Shown here piece after piece: positions 7,587 through 29,954 of a DNA stretch of 64,000 nucleotides (positions are counted from its first letter, which is position 1; each line of letters starts with the position of its first letter). The translations under genes and the position numbers were made by a program. The notes beneath the pieces were generated by a model that was not told the DNA's origin, ran no database searches, and worked only from the letters and a program-made list of their open reading frames with translations. The stretch is taken from contig OY970223.1 of assembly GCA_963714015.1 (NCBI GenBank), forward strand, positions 416,001-480,000. Reading direction: 5' to 3'. This DNA is from Vulcanimicrobiota bacterium. GTDB taxonomy: Bacteria > Vulcanimicrobiota > Vulcanimicrobiia > Vulcanimicrobiales > Vulcanimicrobiaceae.

Positions 7587-8025
7587 GCAGTTTTATGTTC
7601 GCGGCCTTGCTAATGCGCTCCGCTCGCTTGCGAAACGACCCGATCGATCATCGCGTCGATAACCGGCTTGGCAGGCAGTGAAGGCTGCGCGCTTATGCTA
7701 GTGCGTATAGCGAGCAGCGTGTAGGTGCACGGTTTTTCCGAAAGTGCTGAGCGAGTTAAGGAGAGTTCCTCGGCCAGCGCGACGATGATGTCGCAGGACT
7801 CCCACGTAGCAGCGTTTGTACCGACCGCGTATTGGCTATGTCGCTGACGAGTTGGGCGCCGTGGCGCGCACCCGAACGACAGTGTAGTCGACGCTTTAGA
7901 TCAATTATCGTTTTGGCGACTCCGCTTGAGCACTTTTCCACTAGGAACCCGCATCGAACCGTACGAGCACGTCCTGATCAGCGATGGGTGCGCGACGACA
8001 GCGCCGCAACAAAAACAAGGTACCC

Positions 8026-8135
8026 AACCCGTCCGCACTGCGGCTAATGCACGCTCATACTTTCTGCCTATGTTTTCGACGAATTTGGCGTATGACTGCG
8101 ATTTTATTCGTTCTATTGCGGCTAGTCGGTAAATG
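8026..8135. repeat. Diverged copy of the island left-end sequence (10472-10585)
   Basis: tccgcactg-cggctaatgc (8032-8050) vs tccgcactgccggctaatgc (10481-10500); further collinear blocks gccta..ttttcg.cga.ttt.gc and actgcg.t.t.at.cg.tct..tgcg.cta. Confidence 0.65.
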
Positions 8136-8223
8136 GATGACGCTCGGACTCGGTAAGCTGATCACTGCGCGAGATCGGACGAGCGGCCGCTCAAGCCTCT
8201 ATACTGCACATTGTCATCGAGGC

Positions 8224-8481: not shown

Positions 8482-9254
8482 TGATGCGTTCAACCTTTAC
8501 CGATAAGTTGTACTCAAACAGTTCAATGTCGGGAAACTTACGACACGCCAGTATCAGATACCGCGGATATCGTGCGCGCAATAATTATCCCGCGAATGCG
8601 TTTGCCTTCGTCAACATATCCGTTCTCCTCCAGCCACGCCATATATCGAGCGATCTGACCAACCACGCGATCGTAGCCGCGCGACACCTTGAGTTCGATA
8701 ACGACCATATTATCGTGCGCATCGGTAGCGAGGATATCGACATATCGCCCACCAACGGGAAATTCCACACCAGAGGCGCCGTCACGCTCATACAGCGTCA
8801 AACCGTCCTCAATTTGGAAGAGATTAGCGGCCAGGTAGTTTTTGAGATCCGCCTCGTAAGCAAATTCGCCCGCGTCATATAAACCCGCTTGCCCGTCTTC
8901 CGCTACGTTGTCCGCTTCGTCATGGACGTCAAGGGACTCGGCGGCGGTTGCGCCGTCGGTTCCAATATAGATCGGCGGGGGATCGTTGTCAGGATCATAT
9001 AGCCTTAGCGTATTCCGACCCACTTGAAAGAAAATATCGTTGCGCTTTGTCGCGTTGTAATAAACGCGCGTCCGATTGTTCGTCGAAGCGGCTATGGTTT
9101 GCGCCTGAACCGTGCTCGGTTTTACCTTCGGATACTTCTGTCGAAACCACGCGGCCAGGTCGTTTTTAGAGAAGACTTGTCCGTACCCAATAGAGCGATC
9201 GCCGATGAACTCGCGAAAGAGGCTCTCTAACCGGACGGTCGTATATGGGCACAT
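8474..9254 (-). CDS. NucS/DUF91-like PD-(D/E)xK endonuclease with N-terminal domain (frameshifted)
   Basis: EFAYEADLKNYL, GVEFPVGGRYVDILA, VVIELKVSRGYDRVVGQIARYM; indel near 8560 restores C-terminus LILACRKFPDIELFEY. Confidence 0.85.
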
Positions 9255-10450
9255 TAAACATTACCCTGCTGGGCATCGCTTTCACCAAGGGTAAGGTATC
9301 AACCGAGGGTTAGCTCGCGCTTTGCCCTTTTCCAAGCGTTTCCTTCGTCGACACGGTACGCTTTTGTCGACGCGTAGGATCCTGTTGCAACACAATGTGC
9401 GGAAAGCCCTCACGTCGCATACGCGACGCAATGTCGTATGCTTTGATTCATGATGGTGGCATCCAAGATGCAAAAGCGCGGCCGGAAATTTGGCGTGCGA
9501 TGACACGCTAAGGAATCTTATGCGGTACGCGGATGATCCAGGCGCTGGCCCGCTTGAATTGAATAAAAAAGCGAACGCCGTGCACTCAGTACTTCACATC
9601 TTATACAACCAGCAACTTTTCAATAGTCGAAGGGAAGTGGGGCGTTCCAGAGCGGCGCGATTCCGGTAACGAACCGCCGGAAAGAGGTTTGAAACTACGG
9701 CGGAGATTCAGGGATCGTCCAGGTCCGGTCTTTCAATGTGTCAGGCCCGCCTCGGTGCATTAGCGATAGCTTGTTTGGCGCCGCCGCTTGCTTACGCTAG
9801 TTGGGATGTGCGAGGAGTAGATGTGCTCGCGGCGCAAGAGCGCAGACTCGATCGACGAACCTTGCTCGTACTCGTCCAGAATACGCGCCTTGCTGCGGCA
9901 GAAAAGTGCCCGTGTAGCTTTTGCCGCGACCTCAGGGTCGATTAGAATTGGATTGCATGCATGAGACCTTTTATGCCCTGACTAATTTATTCCGGTCGAA
10001 TGGTCTCACGCGAAACTGAAACGGACGGATACGAACTTCTGGTCAGTGCAGAGGACCCAACGGCATTCTATGCATCACGCACGACAACCGACAAAGACGG
10101 ACGATTTTCGGATATCGTTGGCTCCGATACGCCGAACGTTAACGAACACTACGTGATTACGCAAACATCCATCGGAAGCAATTCCGCCCCATGTTTAAGC
10201 ACGACATTCCCTCACCACATCTTGGTAACCAACGGTTTCGTGATAATCAACTTTGCGGCGGTTCAGCCATGAACATTATGAAGGTCTTATGCCTATGCTT
10301 CCTTACCCTGATCGGATCGTCGCTGGAGCTCGTTTCGAGTTGCGGGCGAATTTCCCGGGCAGCCTAGCGCCGGAAGATGAAAAGACGGCGGTGTAATCGT
10401 GGATTGCTGGAAGCGTGCCATAAAAACGCTCGATAAGATCGGTGGAACTA

Positions 10451-10476
10451 TGGTAGCGCCAACGGGAATCGAACCC
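10451..10476. repeat. att direct repeat (copy of tRNA-Glu 3' end)
   Basis: tggtagcgccaacgggaatcgaaccc identical to 24799-24824. Confidence 0.95.
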
Positions 10477-10580
10477 CTTCTCCGCACTGCCGGCTAATGC
10501 GGCCTGTACGGGTTTTGGCCTATTTTCGCCGATTTTCGCAATCGGGTACTGCGGTCTGATGCGGTCTGCTGCGACTATTA

Positions 10581-10599
10581 AGTAGAACTTCAAGTAGAA
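10581..10599. repeat. Terminal motif AGTAGAACTTCAAGTAGAA (candidate integrase arm-type site), left
   Basis: Identical to 24736-24754; internal direct repeat AGTAGAA. Confidence 0.75.
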
Positions 10600-10658
10600 G
10601 CACCTCGGGAGCATTCCGCCGTAAGGCCCGGCCATCGTTGCCCGGGCAACGCCGGGGT

Positions 10659-11417
10659 TCAGGCGCTCTGTCCCGTCGCCGCCAGCCACGCAGCATAACT
10701 CTCGTCATAATAGTCTTGCTGCGCTTGGTCTACTATCACATGTGCGAGAATGCGGCCCGAGTCGAACCCCGCACTGCGTGTATCATTGACCACGCCGTGC
10801 GCAATATATTCGTTCGGGCATTGATACACTTCAAAAAGCGACCGTGCTCCATTGGCTCGCAGAATGTCCGTCGATATAGTGTAGAACGCCGCACCATCGT
10901 ATTCTATGCTCCGAACCATGGCAGGGTTAGTCCGAAGTCGATCGACGATCCGGATAGGCTCTGGTGCTGCGATACACGCTACGTACACCGGCGGGCTTTC
11001 CCGAGAGTTCAAAAATATCGCCTGCACGCAAAAGTAAGGCCGGATATTTCGTTCGCCATCCAACTCAACATAGTACCGTCGCAATCGTTCGAACTCGACA
11101 TTGCTGTTATTCCCCCTTCGGTACCGCAGCGAAAAGCCTGTATAGACATGCCACTCGTTACCCGTGCCGAAGGGTTGAGGCCTCGCCACTAACGTGCGAC
11201 TTGCAATGCCAATCAGGCCGCCGTGCTTCTCAACTTGAATCGCATCGATTCCGCATTTGTCTAGGTACTCTGCGAGCTCGTCTTGTCGGCCTTCAACCAT
11301 GAGCACTTCACGCCCAAGGTGGCTGCGCAAAATAGGCCACACGTGCTGGCGGAATGCGACAGCGGACTCGGCCTTGTCTCGCTCTAATCTATTTGAGGAA
11401 TCGTCCTGGGCTGGCAT
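10659..11417 (-). CDS. Hypothetical protein, putative restriction-endonuclease-fold nuclease
   Basis: GGAG RBS before MPAQDD; VEG...LDKCGIDAIQ...GIASR...FSLR..R...VE pattern of acidic/basic residues; fold is an inference. Confidence 0.5.
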   Translation of the reverse strand: MPAQDDSSNRLERDKAESAVAFRQHVWPILRSHLGREVLMVEGRQDELAEYLDKCGIDAIQVEKHGGLIGIASRTLVARPQPFGTGNEWHVYTGFSLRYRRGNNSNVEFERLRRYYVELDGERNIRPYFCVQAIFLNSRESPPVYVACIAAPEPIRIVDRLRTNPAMVRSIEYDGAAFYTISTDILRANGARSLFEVYQCPNEYIAHGVVNDTRSAGFDSGRILAHVIVDQAQQDYYDESYAAWLAATGQSA

Positions 11418-11509
11418 CTGGTACTCCGATCTACGTTGGTTTTTGTTTACGACGCAATCTACTTCACGCACATCCACGATGCCCATGCTATTGAGGTACA
11501 GCCTAGATG

Positions 11510-12481
11510 TCACACCGGAATGCGATCGGCACCAATGTAAGTCTGTGGCCACGACATGGTCGCCGCTTCCGAGTTGTATTGGAACTGATGCGAGGGTGTG
11601 ATTGAACCTTCCCATTCATCAATTTCTTCCCACCGCGCGACACTAAGTAGGTGCGATTCAAAAACCTGCACCGGAGTAGCCGGACCATTTCGTCGCCATC
11701 GGAGCACGGGATAGCCATCTGGTTGCTCGACTTGGCCGAAAAGTCAGGCCTTCAAATACGGGGGCGCCGAGGTCCGCGACGCGATCGTGATGCGCACCAT
11801 CAGTGCGCAGCGATCCGTAGACCGCAAGGCGGGTAGTTGGCATATTGAGGAGCGAATTGAAAAAGATCACGCAATACAGGTGCCGCGAGCTGGCACAACT
11901 TCAAGATCGCGGCGAGGCTTCGTACCATCATATCCGAACTCGGATTTACCCGGATGGCTCAGGTTGTTCCGAACAAGATATAACAAAGCCGCGAGGCGAC
12001 GCATGGCCATTCGAAGATTGTTTTCGGCGCCGGTTTTCAAAGCCGTGTTGCGCGCGGCGACGAATCCACGGTGCAGTGAGCGAGCCTGCTCAAATACATC
12101 GGCGGCAAGCTGCTCTTTTGGAACACCAAGATTGTGCATCATTCGCGCCACATACGCTTCGTTGTAGATCGGCGGTTGCAATGCAGCGAGAGCGTCGACG
12201 TTCTTGCTCGCTAATATGTGCTGCAGCATCGGTTTTGAGAGACCGTCCCCGCTATAATAACGGATGGTCTGGCCTTCCCTTACATTCCCTCCGACGTCAA
12301 CGAAGTCGCCAGATAAACCACCAAAACGGGCATACACGTATCCCTTCGCGAATGCGGCAAACGCCGTTGCGAGATCGCGATATTCGTGGCGCGTGTCGCG
12401 ATCGTTCCAGGCGAGGCTAAATGCTTCAAGCCCAAGTACTAAATCCGAAAGCGCGACCGCATTCGTGTCCCACCAGGTCAC
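11510..12481 (-). CDS. HEPN-domain protein fused (or tightly coupled) to a gamma-glutamylcyclotransferase/AIG2-like domain; several indels
   Basis: Strong RBS GGAGGAGG; LYLVRNNLSHPGK (Rx4H); then RLAVYGSLR..G.HH, DGYPVLRW, WEEIDEWEG typical of the GGCT fold. Confidence 0.65.
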
Positions 12482-12857
12482 GTACTCCTCCTCCCAGAGC
12501 CAAGTTCGCTATCGTATCACGCTTGTCAAGTCCGGTCTGGGACGTGAACCGCCCCACGTTCTGAACGGCATGGTCGTTACCTACGCGACCGCTGTTCGAT
12601 TGCGCGCCTCGATTCTTCAGCCAGGCTCGCCAAAAGCGCGTCCGAATACGGCTTGCTGTGAGCGAGCAGCACATAGGTGGCAATACGCGTTCCCGTTCTG
12701 ATCGCCGTGAAGTGGGAAGCCGCCGACTCGGTCTGAAGGAGCCAGCCTTCCGCACTCGGCGCATGATGTGACGTCATACCGATCATTGCTGCCATCATGC
12801 GCGCACGGAAGCATGCTGCGCCGCACTTCATGATGATCGTTCTGTTCGTTAGTGTAA

Positions 12858-13368
12858 TCACCCATGGATTGTAATCTCGATTGCGCTGGGGTCGACTCCA
12901 TACGTCATGGACAATCCTTGTTTTGCGGTGGCGATTGTCAAGGGTACAAACTCGCGGGGTCACCGAGGAGTGGTCGACGACCTGGACTTCGACCGGTTCA
13001 AACTTCAGCGCCGTTACCTCAATACCGAGGTCGGATAGGGAAGTGTACCATACTGGATTTCGCTGCGCGTTCCACGCCTGCGGTACCGAGATACGCGCGA
13101 CAGAAGTGAAGCGAATTATCGAGCGTCCTACCGGCTCGGGCGCCGCCGCCGGCTCTATCGACGCAATCGGCGCCACGAGGAAAGCCTCCCCGTGATCGTA
13201 TGGCTCGTTCGCGGAGGCGAATTCCCCCTGGGCATTCCAGATGCACACAAGGTAGCGACAGCGACGCGCCGATGATCCAATCTTCCACGCCTGAGAACCA
13301 CCATCGCGCAGCATACGTTCAATGTTGCGGCTCGTCAGGACCGCAATGCATGAGTCCGCGTCCTTCAC
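12858..13368 (-). CDS. Hypothetical protein, PUA/EVE-like (frameshift at ~12945)
   Basis: GGSQAWK..ARRCRYLVC.WN...HGEAFL...RNPVWY; alternative frame gives LTIATAKQGLSMTYGVDPSAIEITIHG* ending at 12858. Confidence 0.55.
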
Positions 13369-13590
13369 ATAAATATTATATCGATTTTATATGACTATTT
13401 CAACCCTCCGAGGCAAATATCGATTCACGTCCTTAATAGCGCGAGAATCCGGATGTATTCTGCGGAGCGAACCCGACCGATCTCCACAATGCCATACTGT
13501 TAGCATCACACCAAATTATGCTTAGCCGCGAACGCACCGCGAAGATCGCCTAGAAGGATCTTTTTGTGACAGGCATATTTAACACGTGCA

Positions 13591-14543
13591 ATGCTGGCAA
13601 GAAAGTCTAGCCCTAAAATCCCCGTAACCGATACGCTGCCTCGAAGAGTCCCAGGAGGATCTTCTATGGCACGGCGATGTCGAGGCTTTGCTCGACGACC
13701 TTCCCGAAGCACCGCTCTTCGATCTCATCGTGAGTTCGCCGCCCTATAACATCGGAAAGGCTTACGAATGGAGGGCGGATATGGCGAAATACCAAGAATG
13801 GCAGGAGCGGGTGCTGCGCAAGATGGTCCAGCGCCTATCACCGAGTGGCAGTTTGTGCTGGCAAGTCGGGAATTACGTTGCCGATAACGAGATATTGCCG
13901 CTTGATATTCTCTTTCACCCGATTATGAAAAGCCTCGGCTTAAGACTGCGAAATCGAATCATCTGGACTTTCGGACACGGATTGCACACAAGGCGAAGGT
14001 TCAGCGGCCGTTACGAAGTCATTTTGTGGTACACGAGGAGCGACGAATACGAATTTGACCTCGACGCGGTCCGCGTGCCAGCGAAATACCCGGGTAAGAG
14101 ATCTTTTCGCGGCCCGCGCCAGGGCATGCCCTCGGGAAACCCCCTCGGCAAAAATCCGGAGGATGTATGGGAGTTTCCGTTCACAGAAATTGACGATGTC
14201 TGGCGGAACATTCCTAACGTCAAATCAAATCACATCGAAAAAACCGACCACCCATGTCAGTTTCCGGTTGGCCTAATTGAGGAGGCTGATTTTTGCGCTC
14301 ACTAAACCAGGAGCGCTCGTCTTCGATCCGTTCGCCGGCGTTGGATCGGCGGGCGTTGCTGCGTTGCTGCACAACCGGCACTTCTGGGGTTGCGAGATCG
14401 ATGCGAAATACATTGCGATCGCGCGCGAGCGGCTTGAAGGCGCCGCAGCAGGTCTCGCTTCCTATCGGCCGCACACAAAGCCACTATACGATCACACCAA
14501 GTCGCGACTGGCGCTAGTCCCACCGGAATGGGATTCGGAGTGA
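13591..14543 (+). CDS. Site-specific DNA methyltransferase (N4C/N6A, beta class; frameshifted)
   Basis: DLIVSSPPYNIGK catalytic motif, LRNRIIW, HPCQFP, VFDPFAGVGS SAM motif (14277-14543 frame); probable ATG at 13591. Confidence 0.9.
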
Positions 14544-15009
14544 ACTTTCTGCTGTACGACCATCGCGGCGGAGCAGCGGTATTGAATCGATCTTGCGTTG
14601 AATCGGTGAAAAGCGTTATAAACGGCGTGGCGCTCACGAAAAGAGAGCGGACAACTCAGAGAGTGCGGGCCCGAATCCTTGAAGGGCTGCATCACGCGGG
14701 TTGGTCGGATGAAACGAAACTAGACCCTGGGCTCGGCTATTACAGTGACGAGTGTTCGAAACTCCGTCGGACTTGTGTTTTCAGACGGGCAACACAAGCA
14801 GAATGTACGCAGACCTGTTGAAATTGCAGTTGCTCTTCAGCCGCAAGAAAATTGCTGGCGCAATTCTGTTGCTGTACTCGAAAGTTTCTGCACGCGAATT
14901 AGGCGAAAACCTTGCACACTTCGACAGATTGACGAGAGAGCTCGAACTTTTCAAGGAGATAATAACCGTGCCGGCACTTGTTTTTGGCCTGGAAGTAATT
15001 GAATCATGA
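14540..15009 (+). CDS. BglII/BstYI-like type II restriction endonuclease (frameshifted)
   Basis: GTGA overlap with MTase stop; GWS.E, GLCFQTGNTSRMYADLLKLQ, GENLAHFDRLTREL, IITVPALVFGLE. Confidence 0.7.
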
Positions 15010-16261
15010 AGCTCGGCTGGGAAAAACCACGACGCTTGACGACGCTTCAGGAGTGGAGCACGCAACCAGCGGCTACCACGTATCCGGTGCCATTCCAAGG
15101 TACACTACAGCATCTACCTATCAGAACCGCATCGATCGAGATGCCCAAGTACCGGTTAGACAACGGCAGAACTGAGGCGGCGCATCTCAATACCTCGCAA
15201 TGCATCCCGAATTTGATCCCGATATCTTCACAAAGGATCTCGAATCTGAAGCCCGCACAGAACGCACAACACGAAATACTCTCCACACTCATCAACGAAA
15301 AGGACCTACTTCCCTGACTTTCGGGATCACGAGCAAGAAGAACCCCTCATCCTGACGCATGACGGTTTCGTACTGAACGGCAACCGGCGGCTCTGTGTTT
15401 TTAGGACCTTATTTTACGACTCGCCGAAGACGTACCCCAACTTCGCAAATGTTTCTGTTGTGGTTTTGCCATACGGTGACGAAAAGGACCACGACCGCCT
15501 CGAGTCCCGGCTGCAACGCGAGCGCGATCTCCGCGCCGACTATCCGTGGTACTCCGATGCAGTCAAGTATCGAAAACGGTTAAGGAAATTCGGCGATGCC
15601 GAAGTCGCCGCAATGGAAGATGTTAGCAAGGAACACATCATCAAGTACATTTCGATGCTTGACCTTGCGGAAAAATACCTAGAATATCGGGGCGCTCGGC
15701 TTCGATACGCGCTATTGAGTGAAGCCAAGGCTGGAGGAGGCGATGGCTTCTTTGCGTTTGAAGTGATTTTCAAGAACCGCACCAAATTTAAAGATGCGGC
15801 GGAGAAAGAGGCCTTCATCTACGCCTGCTTTGCGGAGCTCCAAACGAAAAGGTAGAGCGTATGAAACAATTCCTAAAATCGCTGAGTACTTCGCGTACGT
15901 CACAAAAGAGATACCAGCCCCTACACATGCGACCGAAGGTGGTGCCAATGCCGTTGACGAGTTCTTCGGAAAAGACAAGAACAATGAATTCGCACCCGTG
16001 GCCGAATATGCGACGAAATTCGAGCACGCGGAAGCGCTTCGCGCAATTGCGCAAGAGGTCGTCGAAGAACGGGAGCGGATAAAGAGCGATACCAAAAAGC
16101 AAAACTTTGTGTATCAGCAGGTCAAAAAGGCCACCACCATCCTGAAGGAGGCATTTAACGGCATTCGCGACGGGTCGAGCCAGGCTGGAGTGAACGAGCA
16201 ACTCGCTGAAGCACAAGAATATATCGAGAGACTGCGGGAGTGGGCGACACCAAAAGCCTAG
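15006..16261 (+). CDS. ParB/Srx-like N-terminal domain protein (frameshifted)
   Basis: ATGA overlap with REase; KYRLDNGRT, QEEPLILTHDGFVLNGNRRL, acidic helical C-terminus; pieces 15006-15317, 15460-15855, 15794-16261. Confidence 0.7.
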
Positions 16262-18030
16262 TTCGCGCCGCGTATCTGTCGAGAAGCGCGCGCGTGAAGT
16301 TGAGTCGCGACGCACCATCCACAGCGTGGATGGCTATTTGGGATAAACGCCACGAGCTTTCGGACGACGTGCACGATGAGAGCCTCACCGAGATTTCGAT
16401 CCCGGTTTGGCTGCTGTTCGGTCTCGGCTCGACCTTTCGGCATTACGCGCGCGTCGGTCGCTTGGCATTTGAACCTGACAGTGGGACCGCAACCATACTC
16501 AGAAACGGCTTAGCAAGCCGTCAAGAGCGCTGGAGCGGGCTGCTCCAATTGAGTTGACCGCCACCGAGGTGCAAGAACAACTGCGCGCCGCCGGTTTCAT
16601 CAGAACTCTGACACCTGAGCAGGCACGCAACGTCGCGCGGCTACAACGTTATTCGGCCGGCGCGGATTTTTCGGTTCCCGGCGCCGGCAAGACAACCGAT
16701 GCCTTGGCGTTCTTCGCGCTAAAACGCAGGGCCAGGGAAGGTCTCGTCGTCATTTCGCCTCTGAACGCGTTTGCTCCATGGGAAGAACAAATCCAATTTT
16801 GCTTTGGTGTCGGCAAATTGCGCACCGTACGCCTCGTTGGAAGCGTCCAGCATATCCAAGAACTGCTTAATTACGAACCAGACGTCGCGCTGATCGATTA
16901 CCATAAGTTTTCGCAAGCCGCGGTTCACAGTGTCCTTGCAGATTACATTGCTGCGAAGCGAACGTTCGTCTTCCTCGACGAGAGTCATAAAATAAAGCGG
17001 GGTGAGGATGGTGCCTGGGGAAACGTGGTGCTCAGCATTGCGCACCTGCCCACGTACAAGCTTGTCTTATCTGGCACGCCGCTACCGAATTCGGAAGCCG
17101 ATCTTGTGGCGCAGATGCGCTTCCTCCACTATGAAGAAGATATCGACGAGCAAAACGTAACGCAGCTGATTCAGCCAATTTTCGTCCGTACGACCAAAGA
17201 CGAACTTGGGCTTCCGGAGGTTATCCGGCGGGCTGTTCCGGTCGCGCTCAGACCCGGCCAACGGAATCTGTACGAGATTCTCTCAACATCGCTTTCCCAA
17301 GAAATACAGATGGCATTGAGCCGGCGTGAGCGCGTCTCTGTTCGTCAGAGTCGGCAAAAGCGTCCTCAGGCTACTCAAGTTTGTTTCCAATCCGGCATTG
17401 CTGATTGCGGAACTTCAAGCGCAGCAAGCTGCGGCGCTACGTGACGTTCTCCTCAGTGAGGATTCGCGAAAAATCGAGTACGCCGTAACCCGTGCGAGAG
17501 AGCTCGCCGCCAACGGCCGCAAATGCATAATTTGGTCTTCATTCATAGACAATGTCGAAGTCATAGCCGGAAGGCTGTCCGATTTGGGTGCCGAGTACAT
17601 ACACGGTGACGTTAGCGTAGGTTCAGAAGAGGACGACACTCGCGAACGACGGATCAAACAATTTCATGAAGACGATGACCGCTTTGTTCTGGTAGCAAAC
17701 CCAGTGCGGCTGGGGAAGCGATCAGTTTGATACGGTCTGCCACAACGCGATTTACGTTGATCGCACGTACAACGCTGCACAGTTCTTGCAGTCCGAAGAA
17801 CGAATCCATCGTGTCGGTTTGTCAAAGGATACCGTTACCGAGGTCGAGATACTTGTTGCGCCGAGAACGATTGACGAGTCTGTGAACCGGCGGTTGATCC
17901 AAAAGGTAGCGACCATGAGCCGTGTGCTAAATGATCCGGCTCTGCACATTGACCCTGAATATGAGGATTCCGGATGATGACGAGGACGTTGCCGTCGACG
18001 ATCTACGAGATTTTCTACAGGACGTGAGCA
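16240..18030 (+). CDS. SNF2-like (SF2) helicase/ATPase (frameshifted)
   Basis: FSVPGAGKT (I), FLDESHKIK (II), LSGTPLPN (III), KCIIWSSF, VLVANP, FLQSEERIHRVG (VI). Confidence 0.85.
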
Positions 18031-18043
18031 CGGAAGCGGCATC

Positions 18044-18955
18044 ATGAACCTTTCCGTGGGTGTGTTGTACGATTGCCAGAAATTCATCGAACTGTGCGAA
18101 TCACGGGCATTTGCACTCAATGACGTTAGGCAGGCCTTCCAGCACCGTTATGAGGCAGCCCGATAGGTGCAGTGCTCGATATGATCCGGGCCACAAATTG
18201 GATACCACTTTGAGGATGACGGTCTACTACGCCTCACCGAACGAGGACGGCGCATATTGCACTGCCGGATGCGGTCGCGGCTCTGCGGCTGCAGCTTATG
18301 GATTTCATTGAGCAGATTGTTAAGCCGACGTGGGCGAGCTTGATCCCACGCGGCCGAAGGGAGACATTGGCGTATCTTCCCGTAGATGTGCGTCAGTGCT
18401 TCAACGAGGCGTACCTGAGTTCCGGATACGACGAACAGGTTGTTGCCTTTTGGGATCGCGCGGCAAATTTATCACGCGGACGCACTGACGACATTCTGTT
18501 GCAGATCGGACGTGAGGGCGAGCGGCTCAGTATCGCGTACGAAACTGAACGTACTGGCCGTGTCCCGGGGTGAAGGCGATCGATTCAAACGTCGCTGGCT
18601 ATGACCTACTCTCGACGGTCGCCCGTGAGGACTCGACCCGCTGAAAATTGAGGTAAAGGCCGTAAAGCGTGTCGATGAACAAGCCTTTTACCTGACCCGC
18701 AACGAGTGGTCGTGCGCCACTGGCCACGGCAAATATGTGCTTCACCTTTGGCTTCTGGGAAAAGTGCCAACGCTCGTCATCAAGTTACCTGACGAGATCG
18801 CGGAACATGTGCCCATAGACAGCGGCTGCGGGCTGTGGCGATCAGTTAAGATTTTGACGTTCGAGGGCGGCGCGACACAGATTAGGCTGACAAAATCGGA
18901 TCGAATTATTGATACGCGCGACGCAAAAAGTGCCGGCTACTTTACTGACTCCTAG
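18044..18955 (+). CDS. DUF3883 (NO VEIN C-terminal) PD-(D/E)xK nuclease-domain protein (frameshifted)
   Basis: MNLSVGVLYD start; IGREGERLSIAYE, AGYDLLS, KIEVKA, FYLTRNEW, YVLHLW. Confidence 0.75.
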
Positions 18956-19197
18956 GAAGAATCCACGCCACCTATTTTTTCCAGGCTGGATTTAACTGTT
19001 GGAAAGATCTGCCGAGCGTTTTGGGACTCGCGCAAGTCACTGGCGCATTCCGACCCATGGCCATAAGACTCCAGGAATGCGTCGATCTCGTCGGCGGGCC
19101 CAAACGTCACCGTATTTATGATGTTGCCAGCGTTTACGCAGTCAGGAACTTCGCAGATGACGGTAAGCGTGATGTCGCCGACGGACTTAAGCGCCAT
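18952..19197 (-). CDS. Small hypothetical protein
   Basis: Purine-rich RBS-like sequence upstream, ATG, 81 aa; no recognised motif. Confidence 0.35.
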   Translation of the reverse strand: MALKSVGDITLTVICEVPDCVNAGNIINTVTFGPADEIDAFLESYGHGSECASDLRESQNARQIFPTVKSSLEKIGGVDSS

Positions 19198-19420
19198 GAT
19201 GTTTTTAGCCGCCCTCTTTCAGTCGTTCTTTGCTCGTGTCCCCATCCTGCCCGACGAGTCCGCCAATGGGTTGCGCTAGTTCCAGCCCGAGGTTCACAAA
19301 CTTAGCGCGGGTAACTCCAGTCATCGGGAGGCGCGTCTAAGCCGCGCGGCACTTTATGATGTCGCCGATAGACCGCCTCCGGGTTGAAAAACATCTGGAA
19401 GAAGTCCCGAAGGCCTGCGA

Positions 19421-20308
19421 GTGCTGGAATACCATAGTGCTATGTTACCGCCAAGTGACGCGATTGTTCCTCGTGATCTGCGCCGTCCGAGCCGCCTAGT
19501 CGGTCGGCCTCGCGTTCATGGCTGCCTTCGCGCCCCGCATTACGATTACGATTGCACCGACGTTCGATGCTTGAAGACGCGAGTATGCGAACGTATACGG
19601 CAATCTACGTATACCTTCGTAGATTTTCGTAGGCTCCGCAAATTTTTAGAGTCTTTCCCCGGTTCGCCGCCGGCTGGCAGGGTCGGACACCCGCAGACGT
19701 TGGCGCGCCCAGCTGCCGCAGCCAGGCGGCCGCACCCCGGCGGGCTGGTAGGCCTTTGGGCACTGGCCCCTGGGACGGCGCATATGCCGCGGCATATTCA
19801 CCGTGGTCATAATGCCGCGGCATAACGGACAATCTCCTCCGGTGGGAACCCCGAACCAAATCCGCGCTGGCTGCCCATGGCCATCCAGGAGCGACGCCAG
19901 TCCCTGGGCGCACGTGCCACCCGAGAAGAGATCGCGCATAAGGCGCACCTGAACTTACGGCATTTGCGTGCAGCGGTATCATGCGGCAGTTGCAGAAGTG
20001 ATGAGGACTAAGCGAATCGTTGTGCGCGGCTATAGCGGTTCTGATCCGCATATCAACGCATGGCTATATGAAAGCGCCAGACTTCACGGCGAATCGTTTT
20101 GCATGGCGTATGTCACAAAGCAGGAGAATTTCAGTCCTGTAATCGCCACACGCGAAATGGAATTCATTCAAGGTGTAACCCGGTTACGGAGCACCATCAC
20201 GAATTGCTGGGCATGTGCGCTACATCGGCAGCAACGTCGCTGGAACTGGCGTAGGCCTACCGCTAGACGATGAGGCGCAGGCAAAACTCCTGCATTTCGT
20301 ACTTAGTT
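19421..20308 (+). pseudogene. Possible SIR2-like domain gene remnant
   Basis: IVVRGYSGSDPHINAWL resembles the SIR2_2 GYSxxDxHI motif; no continuous ORF; N-terminal motifs not recognised. Confidence 0.4.
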
Positions 20309-20406
20309 AACGTCACAAGAACAGAGTTGGCTCTGCCACAAGCGGCTAACCGCGGTCCTTATCCGTCGGGCATATCCGTGGCCCTATCGGTGGAGTCACG
20401 CACGCA

Positions 20407-23400
20407 CTAGTTGGAAACAGCGCGCCGCCACCTTTCGTACGAATCAAGTACCGATGGCCAATCACGCAAACGTTCAAAGTGTTTGTGCACGTCACCAATG
20501 TAAGATTCATCCCGTATCTGGCTTAGTAATAAACCGGCGAAATTCGCCAGCTGCCACATCTGATTGTTATAGCCGTTCGCTATCATTGAATCTGCGAATT
20601 GCATCGCGCGCTTTGGTGGTACGTATGCTGCGTACGAATCAATCGCTTGTAAATCGACATAAACATAAACGCAGTTGCGAAGAGCCCGCTCACACAGATC
20701 GACAATGGCTCCCATTGCGTATTCTGGGTCCTCAGCGATATGCTCGCTTAGCAGACGGCTTATTGTAGAATCTGCGTTAGCGCTCCCACAAGCAATAAAA
20801 AACGCAATCAGCCTTCTAACCGGAGGCTGAAGCGAAATATTTTCGTTGCTGGTCGGGTTCCAGTACTCGCCAGAGCGCCCAGGCCAGCCAGTCTGCAGAT
20901 TTTTCAGGAAGCGATGGCACCACACTCAGCAAAGCCTCAAGTGATGGCTCATCGCCCTTGAACACTACGTCCGCAAGGCGCATACCTAATGCACACTTCG
21001 TCGTGCCAAAGCGGAACCAAAACATGACACGTTCGTCGTCCGTCAGTTTAGGCCAGTATAGCCTGAAAAAATACGCGGTTTGTTCCGCGACAGTTTCATT
21101 TTCTACACGCATCGACAACTGGGCTGCGAAACGAACCATGTTGCCAGCCAGTTCAAATTCATTAGCGCGAACTGCTGCACTATAGATGGCGGTGACTGCC
21201 ATCAGCCCGAAATGAATGGTATATGCCGTGGTTTCTTGGCCAACGGCTTGCATCAGGTCGTCAAGTAAAGGCCTGATGAACCTAAGCCCGTCTTTAGATA
21301 CTAAGCGTGCCGTGGTCCAGTAAGACCAAACACGAACCCCACTAATTGACGAGAAGGAAAACGTCCCATCGTCGTATTTTCTCACTGTCTCCACAGTGGG
21401 GTCTGTATCGCCATATCCGAGTCGGAGAATCGTAAGTACTGTCGATCGATCTGCCTCCTCACTCTTGCGAACAATTTCCGCCTTTCCTCCGGGAGATAAT
21501 CTCGAAAACTCCTTTAACGCATAGCTGGAAAACGTGGCGTCCGAAGGCTGAATTACGTCAGGGACGAGCTGCTTTAGCCGTGAATCATCCAAAACTCGAT
21601 CGCGCAAATGTTTATACTGCAGTGCCGTCGCGACGATCGAAGTTAAGTAACGTTCTCCTGCGAGGCGTGGTTCGTATCCGCTTCTAATTGCCGTTTGCAA
21701 TAAATCCAACGCCCATTCCGGCCTTCCATCCGCCCAATCCAGTTGAGCGAAGAAGCCGAGAGTCGAGCTCTTCATGCTGCACAAAAAAGGGGCGCTTGAC
21801 TATATTAATGGCGTATTGGTATGCGTCGTACGCGACATCACTCGACTTAATAAGCAGGTGGAGCAAAGCCGATTCATCAGGGCTATAGATATCTGAATTG
21901 TCGCCGGATTGTAGCCACTCAAGATAGCACTTCGCAAGAGCAATACTTTCCTTAGCCCTTCGAGCGATCGCATCCCGTATGGAGGGGATACCGTCTCGAA
22001 TGTTTATTAACGCAATAATATTTTGCGCGTGTTCATCGAGATCGTTATCGGAAAATGCAAGCATGAGCTGCGCGTATGCGAAACGCTGGATGAAGCGGGC
22101 CAACTGGCGTAGTAAGTAATCTGCTTAGGAGCTTGCGGCAGTCGACCCTGGTTTCCCGGAGCTAGCGTTGCATGGCCGGGATAACGACTCGTACAAGCCA
22201 ACCGTTATCTTCGTAGTCAAATGCACCACTAATTTGAGAGTGCCCAGGGCCGCTTAATTCAGCCCCGCTATAATCGCCGTAGCGCTCCCACTCCGCTACG
22301 TTTGCGTATTGAAGGACTGCTAATGACCATGCGAGCGCGGCTTGGGGGCTGAGCCGCTGCGAAATAAGGTTTCCACAATCATAAAGCGTCTGACCGGCCC
22401 CATGAATAAAGTCCGGCATACGCCGCTCATTTCCGTATGCTGCCGAGCACTACTTGATATAGCAAATGGGCTCACCGAACGGCAAAAATAGCGCTTTGAG
22501 TTGCGGATATCCAGCCGCTTGAGCAACACGGGAAGCAGCGCAAAAAATCTTCGAATTTCGCTTCTAAAAGGTCATCACGAGAGATATTCGCCGCAGCCGA
22601 GGCCATGGGCTCAGTTACTTCAGCTGCCTCTTCAGGCGAAACCACCTGGTGCTCCAGTAGGCGTTTAAGTAAGGTCGCAAGCAGGTCGGATGGCAGATCA
22701 CGCACGCGAGTTCGTAGCACATCCCACACTAATGGAAGGTTGTCGTCGTACGCCCCCATACTCGCTCGAAACGCCACATCTTCCGGTATAGCGCCAGCAA
22801 TCGCCTTGAAGATGTGACTGTAAGTTGACGCGCGGCGATCTAGGAGACGCATCGCCAAGTGAGCCGCTTCAGGACGAAGCTCCTCTGTTATTACGGCGTC
22901 GAGATCGCGCCACCAGTCGTGTGACTGCGCCAGGTCTATCGCTACGATGTCGTCGGCCTTGAGCAGCGCCCGGAAAAGTCAAAGCGCGTCGACTCATCGT
23001 ACGTTGCGGCGTACTCTGCCGCGCTACGCCCGACGAGGGACAGTTTGTTGCGCGCGGACTCGTTCGCGCCCATTATTCCTCTTTCGCAGGGCCGAAGAGC
23101 AGATCTTCGATACCCATCCGTTGACTGCGGGCGACATCCCACACGAGATGGTCTCGCAAGTTTCCGTACGGAAATTGTAGCATTCCATTCAAGTGTGAGC
23201 CGGCGACCGGCTCTAATAGACCTGAGTCCACGAGCACCTCGATCTCAGCGTCGCTCAACAGACTTTTTCAATTGCAGATAACTAGCGGCGAGTACGTCGT
23301 GCTCCCGCATATAGTTCGCAATTTCCTGAATTTTCCAAATATAGCGTTCTGGCTGACCGCCGCACCGAAGCGCTAATTTTGTGGCTTTGTGCTTAATGAA

Positions 23401-24571
23401 ATTCTCATATACCTCACTTGCCTGCAAGTCCGCGTCGAATCTCGGAACTACCGGCGAATGTCTCGCTGACGATCGACAGCATCGCTGGGTTGCGGCAGAT
23501 TTTCCGTGCATTACCGCTCAGCGTTCCACCGATTTGGAATACAGTGAAGTATTTCTGGATGAATTCGTCGAGTTGCTCGTCTTCGAGCTCGCCAAGGGTT
23601 ATAACTTCGGATTCATTGGTGAAGCGGGCAAGCAAGGTGCTATTCAACAGGCGATGCTTTTCACTCGGTCGGCTTAGTATGATAATCTTGCAGTTGAATG
23701 CACTTAGGCGATCTATCATCGCGGGCAGATCGTGCAGCTCAGACGATACCGCCATCCAGTCGTCGAATCCGTCGAGCACTACGCCTAGCGGCACCCCACG
23801 TTCGGCCAATGAAACCTCGGCGACGCGTTGCAGAAACGCCATGACGTCATCACACCGCTCGTAGACCGCTACAATATCACGTCGGATAACTGCCTCTACG
23901 CCGTCCGTAAGCGCGGCGCCGTCAAGCCTTATAGCATTCCAATGTGGTGATTCAGCCAGGGTCCATGAAAGAGCCGATTTACCGATATCGGAAACGCCAA
24001 GGATTATGTGAACCGGATTTTGCGATCGAAAAAGGGCGACGAAACTGAAGCCGCTCGGAAAGCGGCGCGGTACATACAGATTCGCTGGGATTGACAGCGG
24101 GTGCTTTTGCCGTTGCCGTTCCGGAAACAGCAAGAACTCTTCCGATACCCATCCCGGCCGATCCAGTGTAGGGCTGAAACCGATCCGTAAAGCGCTCTTC
24201 GCGAATGACAGGAGCTCACGTTCTTGAGTTTTGCCCGTGTTCACATTGATCGCGATGTACGTTGTGCCGTCGGTAATACCGACTTCGACGCACCCCTCCG
24301 CTTTCGCATAAGCGACGACCTGCTTGTTTGCCTTCTCGCGTTGTGTCGGCGTCTTGAATTTATCAGGACGCTTGACTTCTATTATGAAAACGACTTTGCC
24401 AAAATGGCGGACCACAATGTCTTTGCGGCGCCGCGATCCAATTTCACGCTCCTCAAGAATGACGTCGTCCATGGGCCAAAGCCGGCGCAGCTCCGCCGCA
24501 ACATGCGCGACGTAGTCGTTTTCTGAGGGCGCCGGTTGTGCGGAGTTGCCGCTCGCCTTTTTGCGAGCCAT
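20407..24571 (-). CDS. Large nuclease-STAND/NACHT-helical repeat protein (Avs-like), many frameshifts
   Basis: MARKKASG start; RRRKDIVV...FIIEVKRP (HsdR-N-like PD-(D/E)xK), ILGVSDIGKS Walker A, VVLDGFDD Walker B, CRNPAML; collinear helical ORF pieces down to 20407. Confidence 0.7.
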
Positions 24572-24735
24572 TGCACGTCGCGTTCGGTTTTCCGGAGCAC
24601 TCTGCCTGTACCGTACGCTTGACCCACATGTTAATGGCTGCCCTCGGCTACGCTGATCTGCCTGCAACTGTCACCTGGGCTTTTGCCTGCCCGGTGCAAC
24701 CGCCATACGGAGACTCGTGCATCTCCGCGACGCTG

Positions 24736-24754
24736 AGTAGAACTTCAAGTAGAA
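24736..24754. repeat. Terminal motif AGTAGAACTTCAAGTAGAA (candidate arm-type site), right
   Basis: Identical to 10581-10599; here AGTAGAACT-TCA-AGTAGAACT. Confidence 0.75.
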
Positions 24755-24769
24755 CTGGCAATCCTAGAT

Positions 24770-24796
24770 AAAAAAGCCGCGTAAATACGCAGCTCT
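24770..24796 (-). terminator. Intrinsic terminator after tRNA-Glu
   Basis: Minus strand AGCTGCGT-ATTT-ACGCGGCT stem followed by a T run. Confidence 0.7.
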
Positions 24797-24798
24797 AT

Positions 24799-24873
24799 TG
24801 GTAGCGCCAACGGGAATCGAACCCGTCTTTCCGCCTTGAAAGGGCGATGTCCTAACCGATAGACGATGGCGCC
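24799..24873 (-). tRNA. tRNA-Glu (UUC)
   Basis: GGCGCCATCGTCTATCGGTTAGGACATCGCCCTTTCAAGGCGGAAAGACGGGTTCGATTCCCGTTGGCGCTACCA cloverleaf, anticodon TTC, encoded CCA. Confidence 0.97.
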
Positions 24874-24947
24874 GTGGCCCTGCCTAATTCACCATAACCT
24901 CGAGCAGGCTGTCAACCACTTCGCCCGCCCGAAGCGGCCGGCCTGGA

Positions 24948-25433
24948 TTACTGGCGGCCTACCGGAGCCTGTGCCGCGATGAAGGTTTTCGAGGTTTGGC
25001 CTTTAGCGGGCGAATGCGGTGTGACGGTAACCGTCATGACGGCCTTTTTCAGCGTACCGACGGTCACGGTACCGGATCCGTTCTTGGCCGTTCGCTCCCA
25101 CTGCACCGCGATCGTGTTCGCGTGACCGCGCATATCCGGCGTGATCTCAACGGTCGCTTTCGACGTCACGATGGACGTGATGGGCCGGCCGTTCGCCCAG
25201 ATGCTAAACGTCACGCCATGGGTCTTGGCGCTGGTCTTTGCATAATAGCGATCGCCGGGGGTTTTCGAAAGCGCCTGTTCCGGCGGTGCGTTCGTCGAAT
25301 TTGCCTGGGCCATCGTCGTTTGACCGGGCAGCGGCGTCTGTCCGGACGACGATGGATTGTTCGCATTGCACGCGGTAAGGCCGAACGCGATCAAAAGCGC
25401 GCCCAGCGAACGGAGGAGGACGAAGCCTTGCAT
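24948..25433 (-). CDS. Hypothetical lipoprotein
   Basis: MQGFVLLRSLGALLIAFGLTAC lipobox. Confidence 0.7.
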   Translation of the reverse strand: MQGFVLLRSLGALLIAFGLTACNANNPSSSGQTPLPGQTTMAQANSTNAPPEQALSKTPGDRYYAKTSAKTHGVTFSIWANGRPITSIVTSKATVEITPDMRGHANTIAVQWERTAKNGSGTVTVGTLKKAVMTVTVTPHSPAKGQTSKTFIAAQAPVGRQ

Positions 25434-25471
25434 GCCTGCGTCATTCCCCGCCCGACCGGCGCTAAACCGCA

Positions 25472-25543
25472 TGGGCCCGGTAGGATTCGAACCTACGCGC
25501 AACCAGTTATGAGCCGGCCGCTCTACCGCTGAGCTACGGGCCC
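25472..25543 (-). tRNA. tRNA with CAU anticodon (probably Ile2, lysidine type; Met not excluded)
   Basis: GGGCCCGTAGCTCAGCGGTAGAGCGGCCGGCTCATAACTGGTTGCGCGTAGGTTCGAATCCTACCGGGCCCA; no encoded CCA. Confidence 0.9.
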
Positions 25544-25629
25544 GGTGGGCCTCTCCGTATTCCAAGACCGGGTCGCCGTTCCCTTACGGCGTGCACCGTC
25601 CGGCCGAGCAAATCTTTACCGCCCGCCTT

Positions 25630-25669
25630 TAGTTGACTTCGTCAAATACTTAGTTGATAATGTCAACTA
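25630..25669. promoter_or_regulatory. Two tandem palindromic operators, TAGTTGA-N5-TCAA(A/C)TA, before the MarR-GNAT gene
   Basis: tagttgacttcgtcaaata (25630-25648) and tagttgataatgtcaacta (25651-25669), ending 3 bp before the ATG. Confidence 0.7.
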
Positions 25670-25672
25670 TCT

Positions 25673-26587
25673 ATGCAACAAGACGTCGAACGTTTGCGCC
25701 GCTTCAATCGCTTCTACACCCGGCGGCTCGGCATTCTGGATAAGGGATTTTTGGGCAGCGATTTCGCGCTCATCGAGGTTCGCGTTCTGTACGAACTTGC
25801 CCACCGCGATAACGTCTTCGCATCGGAACTGGTCGACGAATTAACCGTCGATCCGGGATATTTGAGCCGGATTCTGCGCGGATTCGAGCAACAAGGCCTG
25901 ATCCGCAAGCAGCGCAGCCGTACCGACTCGCGGCGCAGCATGCTCGCGCTCACTGCAAAAGGGCGTCGCGTCTTCGAACGTCTGGATAAACGTCAGCACG
26001 ATGAAGTCGCGGCGATGTTGCAGGATCTCCATGAAACCGATCGTCGCCGTTTACTGGCAGCCGCCGGAGCAGTCGAAGATCTTTTGGAGCGCCGACAGTT
26101 CAACGGCACGCCGTTCGTGCTTCGCGACCCGCGTCCGGGCGACATCGGCTGGGTCGTCGAGCGGCATGGCGCGATCTATTCGATGGAGTACGGCTGGAAC
26201 GAGCAGTTTGAAGCGCTCGTTGCAGAAATCGCCGGCGGCTTTTTGAAGCAGCACGATGCCGAACGGGAACATTGCTGGATCGCAGAACTCGACGGACGCA
26301 ATGCCGGCTGCATCTTCCTCGTGGCGAAAGATGCCTCTGTCGCCCAACTTCGGCTGCTGCTCGTAGAGCCGGATGCGCGCGGCTTGGGCATCGGACGTGC
26401 CCTTATTCGCCGATGCATCGAATTCGCGCGAACGGCGGGCTACCGTAAGATAACGCTCTGGACCAATCACGTCCTCGAGGCCGCTCGTCATCTCTATGAA
26501 GAAGCGGGATTCACGTTGTTAAAAGAAGAGCCGCACGAGCGGTTCGGGACCCCGCTCGTGGGCCAAACTTGGGAACTTCGACTGTAA
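25673..26587 (+). CDS. Bifunctional MarR HTH / GNAT acetyltransferase
   Basis: RRFNRFYT, DPGYLSRIL, DSRRS; LRLLLVEPDARGLGIG. Confidence 0.9.
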   Translation: MQQDVERLRRFNRFYTRRLGILDKGFLGSDFALIEVRVLYELAHRDNVFASELVDELTVDPGYLSRILRGFEQQGLIRKQRSRTDSRRSMLALTAKGRRVFERLDKRQHDEVAAMLQDLHETDRRRLLAAAGAVEDLLERRQFNGTPFVLRDPRPGDIGWVVERHGAIYSMEYGWNEQFEALVAEIAGGFLKQHDAEREHCWIAELDGRNAGCIFLVAKDASVAQLRLLLVEPDARGLGIGRALIRRCIEFARTAGYRKITLWTNHVLEAARHLYEEAGFTLLKEEPHERFGTPLVGQTWELRL

Positions 26588-26590
26588 ACG

Positions 26591-27013
26591 CTAGCCTTCG
26601 GAAATATCGGCGACGACCGACCCCGTCTCTTCCGACGGCAGCTGGCGCGCGATGTCGGCTTGGCTCACCATTCCGACGAGCGTCTTCCCACGCGTTACCG
26701 GCAATCGCCGAACCTGACGCGACCGCATCAGTTGCGTAGCGCGGTCTATCGGATCGTCCGGCGAAACCGCTTCGATATCCGACGAATCTATTTCTCCGAC
26801 TTTTGTGGTCGAGGGATCTTTGCGCTCGGCTATTGCGCGCACGACGATATCGCGATCGGTAATGATTCCGCGCAGTTCGCCGGTGTCCGAGATTACGGGA
26901 ATTGCTCCGACGTTGGCTTGCGCCATTCGCTGCGCGGCATTTGCGACGGTGTCGTTCTCGCGGACCGTTTCGACCGATTCAGTCATGACGTCCGCAACTC
27001 GTACACTGGTCAT
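26591..27013 (-). CDS. CBS-domain protein
   Basis: VADVMT, VGAIPV, GIITDRDIV, VRRLPV. Confidence 0.9.
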   Translation of the reverse strand: MTSVRVADVMTESVETVRENDTVANAAQRMAQANVGAIPVISDTGELRGIITDRDIVVRAIAERKDPSTTKVGEIDSSDIEAVSPDDPIDRATQLMRSRQVRRLPVTRGKTLVGMVSQADIARQLPSEETGSVVADISEG

Positions 27014-27109
27014 ATCGGCCTCCTTATTTCTTTCAGATAGAACCGATTCCCAAAGAGCGCCCAATCCAACGTACCGGGCGGCAGGCTCCCCCCACGTCGG
27101 GCCGGCGGC

Positions 27110-28188: not shown

Positions 28189-29954
<1,766 letters not shown>

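Follow-up and report, generated by a model that had tools for sequence, protein, structure and literature searches.

How does a block of defence genes come to lie between two perfect copies of a tRNA 3' end when no recombinase that could have put it there is in sight? The question is raised by a 64,000-nucleotide (nt) stretch of a Vulcanimicrobiota bacterium of the family Vulcanimicrobiaceae (assembly GCA_963714015.1, contig OY970223.1, positions 416,001 to 480,000), hereafter the window, in which about 14.3 kb beside a tRNA-Glu(UUC) gene had been described in an initial annotation as an integrase-less defence island, either mobilized in trans by an integrase encoded elsewhere or recently deprived of its own. 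The genome (G000 in our labelling, with the window at G000:C1:416001-480000) is one contig of 3,562,638 bases with 89.6% completeness. The segment, called element A below, is quite probably an integrated and decaying remnant of a tyrosine-integrase island at the tRNA-Glu(UUC) 3' end, resembling the cis-mobilizable elements (CIMEs). Coordinates of its features are collected in Table 1.

The two ends carry the first part of the argument. The last 26 nt of the tRNA gene recur at the far side of the island as an exact direct repeat (10451-10476 = 24799-24824, spacing 14348), whose length is exactly 26 nt because the adjacent bases differ between the copies. The duplication reported initially is therefore real, identical at 26/26 positions, and the pair is unique: with up to four mismatches allowed, the core occurs at these two sites only in the whole genome, and by our arithmetic chance alone would produce about 5e-7 exact 26-mer pairs in 64 kb. 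The element is thus bounded, as a tRNA-integrated island should be, by direct repeats of its target tRNA 3' end. A second exact repeat, the 19-nt AGTAGAACTTCAAGTAGAA, lies near both ends (10581-10599 and 24736-24754) and nowhere else in the genome at up to three mismatches, which upholds the earlier claim of conserved terminal motifs. The hairpin directly 3' of the tRNA folds at -13.6 kcal/mol (z -4.0, with 1/200 shuffles as good) and has U6 after it; it is conserved in two related genomes, G009 and G100, where the region is 93-97% identical. The P' arm (10477-10600) likewise matches G100 (81% over 89 nt) and G009 (73% over 123 nt), in each case at the equivalent place beside their distal cores.

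Sister elements in related genomes share this plan of the ends. Read in the orientation of the window, the cargo is followed by a tandem pair of a 7-9-nt motif, then by 20-30 nt, a hairpin preceded by an A-run, about 6 nt, the core and the tRNA, and the tandem motif recurs about 100-130 nt past the distal core. In the island of the window, the direct tandem pair has a period of 12-13 nt in both arms. The motifs vary between elements (examples are GTGCCAC, GGCAACC, GTTAGAC, GTGACAA, GTTACACGG, TGCAACC, GTGACCA and GTAGAAC/GTAGACA) and agree between both arms of one element: in 17 of 21 elements a word of 9 nt or longer is common to both arms, and the cross-genome control pairs, among which elements of a single motif class still occur, show this in 69 of 416 cases. 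The one shared 26-bp core goes with at least eight classes of arm motif. For the class present in the window, 348 family genomes were scanned with the pattern GTAGAM, 4-8 nt, GTAGAM, 20-50 nt, core; such GTAGA-type arms stand beside the core at 11 sites in 10 genomes, and an integrase adjoins only two of these sites, G150a and G021. The 402-aa integrase open frame of G021 stops 3 nt before GTAGAACTTTGGGTAGAAC, and it is from this unpublished genome that the link between an integrase and GTAGAAC, the half-site of the window, is drawn; unpublished genomes also enter the counts of the core-copy, integrase and GTAGA-type scans. Because of their position, their covariation and the G021 integrase link, we read the tandem motifs as candidate arm-type integrase sites. 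In lambda-type attP, arm-type integrase binding sites flank the core at a distance. The island is similar in its short repeated motifs on both sides of the core at some distance, apparently specific to an integrase lineage, and differs in that each arm carries the motif as a direct tandem pair. GTAGA tandem pairs elsewhere in the G000 genome were considered and dismissed (five sites where 4.3 are expected, in ordinary-looking coding sequence).

The enzyme that would act on such sites was sought in the island with negative results throughout. Pfam searches returned no recombinase, excisionase or relaxase among 112 six-frame stop-to-stop open reading frames (ORFs) of at least 70 aa in 7600-25000, and no Phage_integrase, Resolvase, Recombinase, excisionase or relaxase among 132 ORFs of 45-69 aa in 7990-24830; these 244 six-frame ORFs in Pfam, together with PADLOC, NCBIfam and PHROGs searches, yielded no integrase, resolvase, excisionase, relaxase or transfer gene. 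Six-frame searches of the whole genome gave six matches to PF00589 and two to PF00239, none of either in the window, and tblastn with integrases of sister elements found nothing there; raising the E limit to 20 brought up only noise, dispersed over both strands. Neither Pfam nor PHROGs detected phage structural, packaging or replication genes, so the segment does not qualify as a prophage or phage satellite; the 38 main ORFs matched methyltransferase and helicase families of PHROGs, one family of unknown function, and nothing else. The earlier observation that tyrosine and serine recombinases, relaxases and phage genes are missing is thereby sustained, down to the lack of any recombinase remnant inside 10451-24824. 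An integrase beside the attachment site, otherwise a mark of tRNA islands, is not found in this one.

The remainder of the genome does not appear to supply the activity either. Its sole intact tyrosine recombinase is of Xer type (XerC model 278 bits, XerD 256 bits). The G021 integrase has three matches in G000, namely this Xer gene (28%), a fragment at 3431550 and, the best of them, a frameshifted C-terminal fragment at genome positions 3092469-3092761 (45% identical). No resident enzyme that could move the island is thus apparent, and a search of G000 for another element with the same end motifs found none. The proposal of mobilization in trans by an integrase elsewhere in this genome is accordingly not supported, and the island is probably immobile here because the genome encodes no matching integrase. 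As an observation apart, the fragment at 3092469-3092761 lies about 4.3 kb from the other tRNA-Glu gene (ctc, 3088102-3088174); in relatives, the end of the ctc-type tRNA likewise has extra copies and adjacent integrases, and the locus seems to form another such hot spot.

What the integrase may once have looked like can be gathered from relatives. A 19.9-kb query against 40 of them revealed extra tRNA-Glu 3'-end copies beside the tRNA in several genomes. These copies bound a segment of 14.8 kb in G009, tandem segments of 3.3 and 4.3 kb in G007, one of 5.8 kb with an exact repeat in G015 and one of 21 kb in G006, and several are spread over 33 kb in G011. A core-pattern scan gave matches in 109 of 121 family genomes and many same-strand clusters (for example, five copies within 27 kb in G075); with multiple same-strand core copies in many of the 121 genomes, the tRNA-Glu site is a family-wide hot spot. 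In a protein search, the 390-aa integrase of G006 has matches in 85 of the 121 and none in G000. Intact sister integrases (e.g., G090, G075, G130, G088) read toward the tRNA and end about 90-120 nt from the core. In G015 (L019, 2610-3089), a C-terminal integrase fragment stays open through the terminator and distal core, ending ...MVAPTGIEPE; this is probably chance, given where other integrases stop, and the notion that the integrase gene generally overlaps the core was dropped since this ORF alone reads through.

The state of the integrase was classed in the 1.6-1.7 kb beside the tRNA at 30 loci, a biased sample picked in part for repeats or integrase matches. The gene is full-length at ten loci (G090, G075, G130, G088, G150a, G021, G077, G006, G111 and G067, the last two with one stop each), lies in several frames at three (G086, G060, G072), survives as fragments only at five (G125, G045, G140, G150b and same-genus G001) and is classed as absent from twelve (G000, G009, G007, G015, G011, G100, G008, G051, G143, G147, G148, G243). 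Leftover fragments are mostly C-terminal, and in G140, G143 and G150b the last integrase codons (..RQIDRAL) alone remain, just before the motif. A gradation of this kind, its end points differing from locus to locus, is consistent with independent decay that occurred repeatedly, and it would suit deletions that advance from the cargo side and halt before the terminator and tRNA, both required by the cell. The initial suggestion of recent integrase loss therefore stands in one half: loss is favoured by the series and by the sister elements that carry an integrase, and its recency gains a little from the perfect cis sites but must reckon with a cargo that already has several frameshifts.

Content at the site differs in every relative examined and is thus not fixed; as no recombinase remnant lies inside either, the initial annotation passes the refutation test that it set itself. 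The island of G009 holds an intact type I restriction-modification (R-M) system with ERCC4 and RES, that of G007 MazEF and a Schlafen-like gene, and that of G015 a DpnII-like nuclease and RES; no conjugation or mobilization module was seen in the sister elements examined. A clean empty-site allele could not be defined among the relatives, and the tRNA-Glu of G001 is accompanied by an integrase fragment and unrelated genes.

Diversity of this kind invites another interpretation, in which the island belongs to a maintained class of integrase-less, site-intact defence cassettes that form an exchangeable array and are moved in trans by integrase elements with the same arms. It would account for core and arm sites that are perfect in the window, for arm and P' sequences conserved with G009 and G100 whose islands differ entirely in cargo and also lack an integrase, for the nine of 11 GTAGA-type sites without an adjacent integrase, and for the tandem arrays common in the family. 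We nevertheless consider it unlikely. No matching integrase is present in this genome; the graded losses, with their varied deletion ends and leftover C-terminal codons, fit independent decay; the cargo consists largely of pseudogenes; the cargo proteins tested (252 aa and 418 aa) occur nowhere else and so give no sign of spread; the distal sites of G009 and G100 have decayed; and the integrase-less count is biased, since the motifs were required by the pattern.

Returning to the decaying-island reading, the segment does not stand alone. G+C per 1-kb bin is 0.59-0.63 up to 8000 and about 0.60 beyond 25000; it is 0.50-0.56 throughout 8001-25000, with the single exception of bin 19001-20000 (0.597), so that the island (0.50-0.56) deviates from the host chromosome (about 0.61 in the flanks). 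Since low G+C extends from 8001 onward, the foreign segment starts near 8000, and position 10451, proposed as its beginning, is not the compositional limit. Within the extra stretch, 8032-8124 aligns locally to 10481-10577 with a score of 43, above anything obtained from 3000 random 300-nt genome segments (mean 17.5, sd 2.4, maximum 39). This third arm copy and the degraded core before it point to a tandem array: the low-G+C region reads as two elements of one family, B (about 7996-10450) and A (10451-24824), with A as the tRNA-proximal member. To the left of 10451 the hairpin has degenerated (-4.2 kcal/mol, z -0.27), in keeping with an older copy not under selection. The sole recognizable gene of element B is the nuclease gene at 8538-9254 (PF24706 4.6e-13, PF01939 7.7e-9, PADLOC candidate PDC-S02 1.3e-15).

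The same older copy helps to judge whether the attachment remnants are themselves old and vertically inherited, the content at a fixed hot spot having been exchanged through homologous recombination or other insertions and not through site-specific integration of the 14.3-kb unit. Arm sequences are common to genera g1, g8 and g21, content is different in every relative and the far-side flank is itself variable, all of which vertical descent could explain. It is nonetheless quite improbable: neutral decay since the genus split would not leave a 26/26 core and 19/19 arms when conserved genes between these genera have only about 65-72% DNA identity, the copy at 7996-8124 shows how such decay looks, and the assembled sequences of same-genus G001 and G002 are without a second core copy.

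Cargo decay supplies the other half of the case for a dying island. Across 13628-18952 the gene order is shared with a cluster of G037, a genome of another family in the same class (L025, 5267-10989), at 32-65% amino-acid identity: N6/N4 methylase, BglII-like nuclease, two unknown genes, SNF2 helicase and NOV_C. Against this template, the intact 593-aa helicase of G037 aligns to the window in four frame segments (1/3/1/2); a 283-aa protein does so in frame 1 (15424-15789) and then frame 2 (15851-16246); and the methylase has residues 36-230 in one frame and its C-terminal motif in another, PF01555 positions 2-173 falling in 13628-14302 and positions 171-220 in 14277-14540. The PF09195 match of the BglII-like remnant (1.1e-5) covers the C-terminal part only and is below the curated cut-off. 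Apparent frameshifts lie at about 14290, 15800, 16520, 17347 and 17715. In the eight-ORF run at 20407-24667, the first 417 aa give PF05729 (NACHT, 0.0016) and PF04313 (HSDR_N, 0.002), both below cut-off, and the run may represent one long STAND-NTPase-like gene broken by frameshifts; no homologue of its 418-aa piece was found in 200 family genomes, and database searches yielded no longer homologues of the 418-aa and 327-aa pieces, which is weak evidence. Within the conserved cluster, PADLOC recognized only the methylase, along with weak DpdE/ZorD helicase matches; the cluster from methylase to NOV_C is a candidate multi-gene defence system.

Several anti-phage systems are thus clustered and most are disrupted: MTase_II with the BglII-like nuclease, the SNF2 helicase with NOV_C, SIR2-like and STAND-like fragments, and the NucS_C/PDC-S02-like gene. 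The earlier description of a defence-like cargo holds insofar as clustered defence-family matches are present, with the amendment that the split helicase, methylase and neighbouring genes make it largely a set of pseudogenes. ORFs of at least 250 aa cover 34% of island bases and 82% genome-wide, placing the island in the lowest 0.5% of 14-kb windows. Long-ORF coverage is normal across the genome and low in the island, and breakage is therefore local and not a general assembly fault. One may still ask whether the island or its frameshifts arose from mis-assembly or poor polishing of a region that varied in the sampled population, given a single contig at 89.6% completeness and one frameshift junction at a T5 run. 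We hold this to be very improbable in view of the normal ORF integrity elsewhere, the full anatomy of independent genomes at the ends (core, terminator, matched arm motifs) and the position of most frame changes away from long homopolymers.

A history that would join these findings runs as follows. Recombination within the 26-bp core would have integrated an element that rebuilt the tRNA end and left a second core at its far end, bringing its own tRNA terminator and tandem GTAGAAC motifs in both arms. Element A would have landed beside the older element of the same kind at about 7996-10450, creating the tandem array. The integrase gene, which in intact relatives lies between the cargo and the arm motifs and reads toward the tRNA, would later have been deleted, and the defence cargo (the methylase/BglII-like nuclease/SNF2 helicase/NOV_C cluster and the STAND-like and SIR2-like genes) would have gathered frameshifts. 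The island could then move only through a newly arriving element that has a matching integrase and either integrates alongside or provides the enzyme.

Several points weigh against this history. The distal core and the arm motifs are perfect (26/26 and 19/19) though the cargo is broken, and selection could have kept them so. A rough estimate, which assumes 15-20 disrupting indels in 14 kb and substitutions about ten times as frequent, implies a divergence of about 1-1.4% since integration, with 0.6-0.9 changes expected in the approximately 64 unselected site bases; the chance of no change at all is then about even, and perfect sites therefore need no selective explanation, though they leave room for one. 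Nine of the 11 GTAGA-type elements lack an adjacent integrase yet keep their arm motifs and could be a lineage that spreads without it, a count subject to the bias of a search that required the motifs. Frameshifts may possibly stem from locally error-prone assembly; one junction lies at a T5 run. Overlapping ORFs are the only sign that 20407-24667 is a pseudogene, and no donor element with the same cargo plus an integrase was found.

Among described systems, CIMEs are closest. Passages on streptococcal families of ICEs (integrative and conjugative elements) and IMEs (integrative and mobilizable elements) set out both the CIME concept and a tandem accretion model, in which a newcomer integrates at the site that takes in the target gene's end (PMC5704250, PMC10201445). 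Like a CIME, the island has kept attL and attR, with both core copies and arm motifs exact, has no recombination or conjugation/mobilization genes, and has a second decayed element as its tandem neighbour at the target gene's 3' end; its proposed origin is also the same, an integrated element having decayed before a newcomer inserted at the gene-end site. It differs in several respects. Conjugation and mobilization genes were seen neither in the island nor in the examined sister elements, and the parent therefore looks like a simple integrative island and not an ICE or IME; a functional partner element is absent from this genome; the cargo comprises mostly broken defence genes; and the host belongs to an uncultured-type lineage. 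On sequence features, the island fits the CIME definition and is filed here as CIME-like.

Two broader categories are also relevant. Genomic islands linked to tRNA genes and carrying phage-type tyrosine integrases are known to decay and form mosaics. The island shares their tRNA 3'-end repeats and deviant G+C, and the integrase of its intact relatives adjoins the tRNA; it departs from them in that its own integrase is entirely gone and in the element-borne terminator and matched arm motifs, unusually readable thanks to many sister elements. As in defence hot spots, a conserved site holds different defence systems in each genome (type I R-M, MazEF, RES, DpnII-like and Schlafen-like in relatives), whereas the defence content of this genome is mostly pseudogenes.

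Table 1. Features of the tRNA-Glu(UUC) island (element A) and its older neighbour (element B), in window positions
Feature	Positions	Strand	Basis
tRNA-Glu(UUC), integration target	24799..24873	-	ARAGORN (ttc); Rfam tRNA 60.6 bits
tRNA-proximal core, last 26 nt of tRNA gene	24799..24824		exact direct repeat
Distal core copy, 26/26 identical	10451..10476		exact direct repeat
P-arm tandem motif AGTAGAAC-N5-AGTAGAA, candidate integrase arm-type site	24736..24754		exact 19-nt repeat
P'-arm copy of tandem motif	10581..10599		exact 19-nt repeat
P' arm of element A, begins CTTCTCCGCACTGCCGGCTAATGC	10477..10600		alignment to G100 and G009
Intrinsic-terminator hairpin and U-run directly 3' of tRNA, element side of core	24768..24796	-	folding
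Degenerate third core, putative distal end of element B (approximate limits)	7996..8031		sequence reading, alignment; G+C drop starts
Third, diverged P'-arm copy, element B	8032..8124		local alignment to 10481-10577
Intact 238-aa DUF7669 and NucS_C-like nuclease, element B cargo	8538..9254	-	Pfam, PADLOC
252-aa ORFan-family protein, candidate PD-(D/E)xK-fold nuclease	10659..11417	-	remote homologues, predicted fold
204-aa protein of unknown family	11867..12481	-	no Pfam, PADLOC, NCBIfam or PHROG match
263-aa ORF, family match in first ~140 aa only	12577..13368	-	phrog_37247 (unknown function)
Type II N6/N4 DNA methyltransferase, split in two frames near 14280-14300	13628..14540	+	PF01555; PADLOC MTase_II
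BglII-like restriction endonuclease remnant, two frames	14438..15006	+	PF09195; collinear with G037
Unknown genes of conserved cluster, frame-split	15003..16258	+	G037 283-aa protein alignment
SNF2-family helicase pseudogene	16273..17968	+	G037 homologue alignment; PF00176 2.2e-15
NOV_C (DUF3883-like) nuclease-domain fragments	18265..18952	+	PF13020 6.4e-5; collinear with G037
Weak SIR2-like fragment	19953..20270	+	PF13289 0.0078, below cut-off; PADLOC Aga_SIR2 2.2e-4
Eight same-strand ORFs, some overlapping by ~100 nt	20407..24667	-	ORF list

The 252-aa protein beside the distal end was examined further as a possible unrecognized recombinase. In an index of 5.8 billion proteins it is represented by itself only (a one-member cluster on one contig), and an exhaustive phmmer search gave 53 remote relatives of about 190-230 aa, with invariant E, D, D, R and P columns and no Pfam or PHROG family. 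An AlphaFold (AF2) model built from the family alignment has a pLDDT of 81.7. Foldseek matches to it are weak (best E 1.1e-3), and in an independent fold search the leading matches are nucleases of the restriction, homing and Hjc/RecU types (Z 5.0-6.7). Nothing meaningful came from searching PDB sequences with the family profile, and the ESM Atlas contributed unnamed viral clusters and hints of nuclease families below 0.9, nothing more. With these middling scores the protein is probably a PD-(D/E)xK-like nuclease, to be taken as a lead; a role as site-specific recombinase was rejected, since nothing in its homologues or fold matches points there.

Other parts of the region merit brief description. 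The phrog_37247 match to the 263-aa ORF (2.2e-20) joins residues 12-141 to profile positions 5-144 of 189. The 204-aa protein, which matches no library, contains ...LVRNNLSHPG..., which we take to resemble the HEPN RNase motif Rx4-6H. The sole island bin with host-like G+C (0.597) contains the perfect 14-nt palindrome TATGCCGCGGCATA twice, the copies lying 28 nt apart at 19775-19824; they may serve as paired operators or mark where a small inserted element ends. A stretch of about 80 nt immediately to the left of the distal core (10330-10412) matches other genomes at non-equivalent sites (G007:C1:74879-74962, 88%; G007:C1:606771-606820; G016:C21:733192-733268); it is thus short and conserved, belongs to no Rfam family and has no second copy in the G000 genome. 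An Rfam search of 7000-26500 found two tRNAs and nothing else, the second being a tRNA-Met on the minus strand at 25472-25543 (ARAGORN). In the right flank, the gene beside it (25673-26587) has homologues at other loci in relatives (L015, L016), while the conserved neighbour at 28192-29523 comes after tRNA-Met there; the flank may hold a small variable insert at 25600-28100. The left-flank gene at 5020-7275 has an ortholog in G022 only (68%), with paralogues of ~30% in same-genus G001 and G002.

Taken by itself, the island is unremarkable, an integrative island that has died along with its defence genes, which is a common fate. Its value is as a worked example of defence-island decay in place, where the tRNA-side sites survive and the integrase is whittled away. 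The comparison set amounts to a natural experiment on the specificity of integrases for their arm sites, with one 26-bp core and at least eight arm-motif classes in one family. Two candidate families might also be named, the PD-(D/E)xK-like family without a Pfam model and the cluster of methylase, BglII-like nuclease, two unknowns, SNF2 and NOV_C. A more ambitious idea, to which we give little credence, is that the tRNA-Glu(UUC) 3' end is an integron-like landing pad, where many integrase lineages use one core with private arms and parked cassettes can be reused by elements with matching arms. If that were true, integrase-less cassettes would be a reservoir to excise, capture and pass on, with the island of the window as one parked cassette; and if such cassettes can be mobilized in trans, the locus would offer a simple model of how defence genes are exchanged without a recombinase of their own in every cassette.

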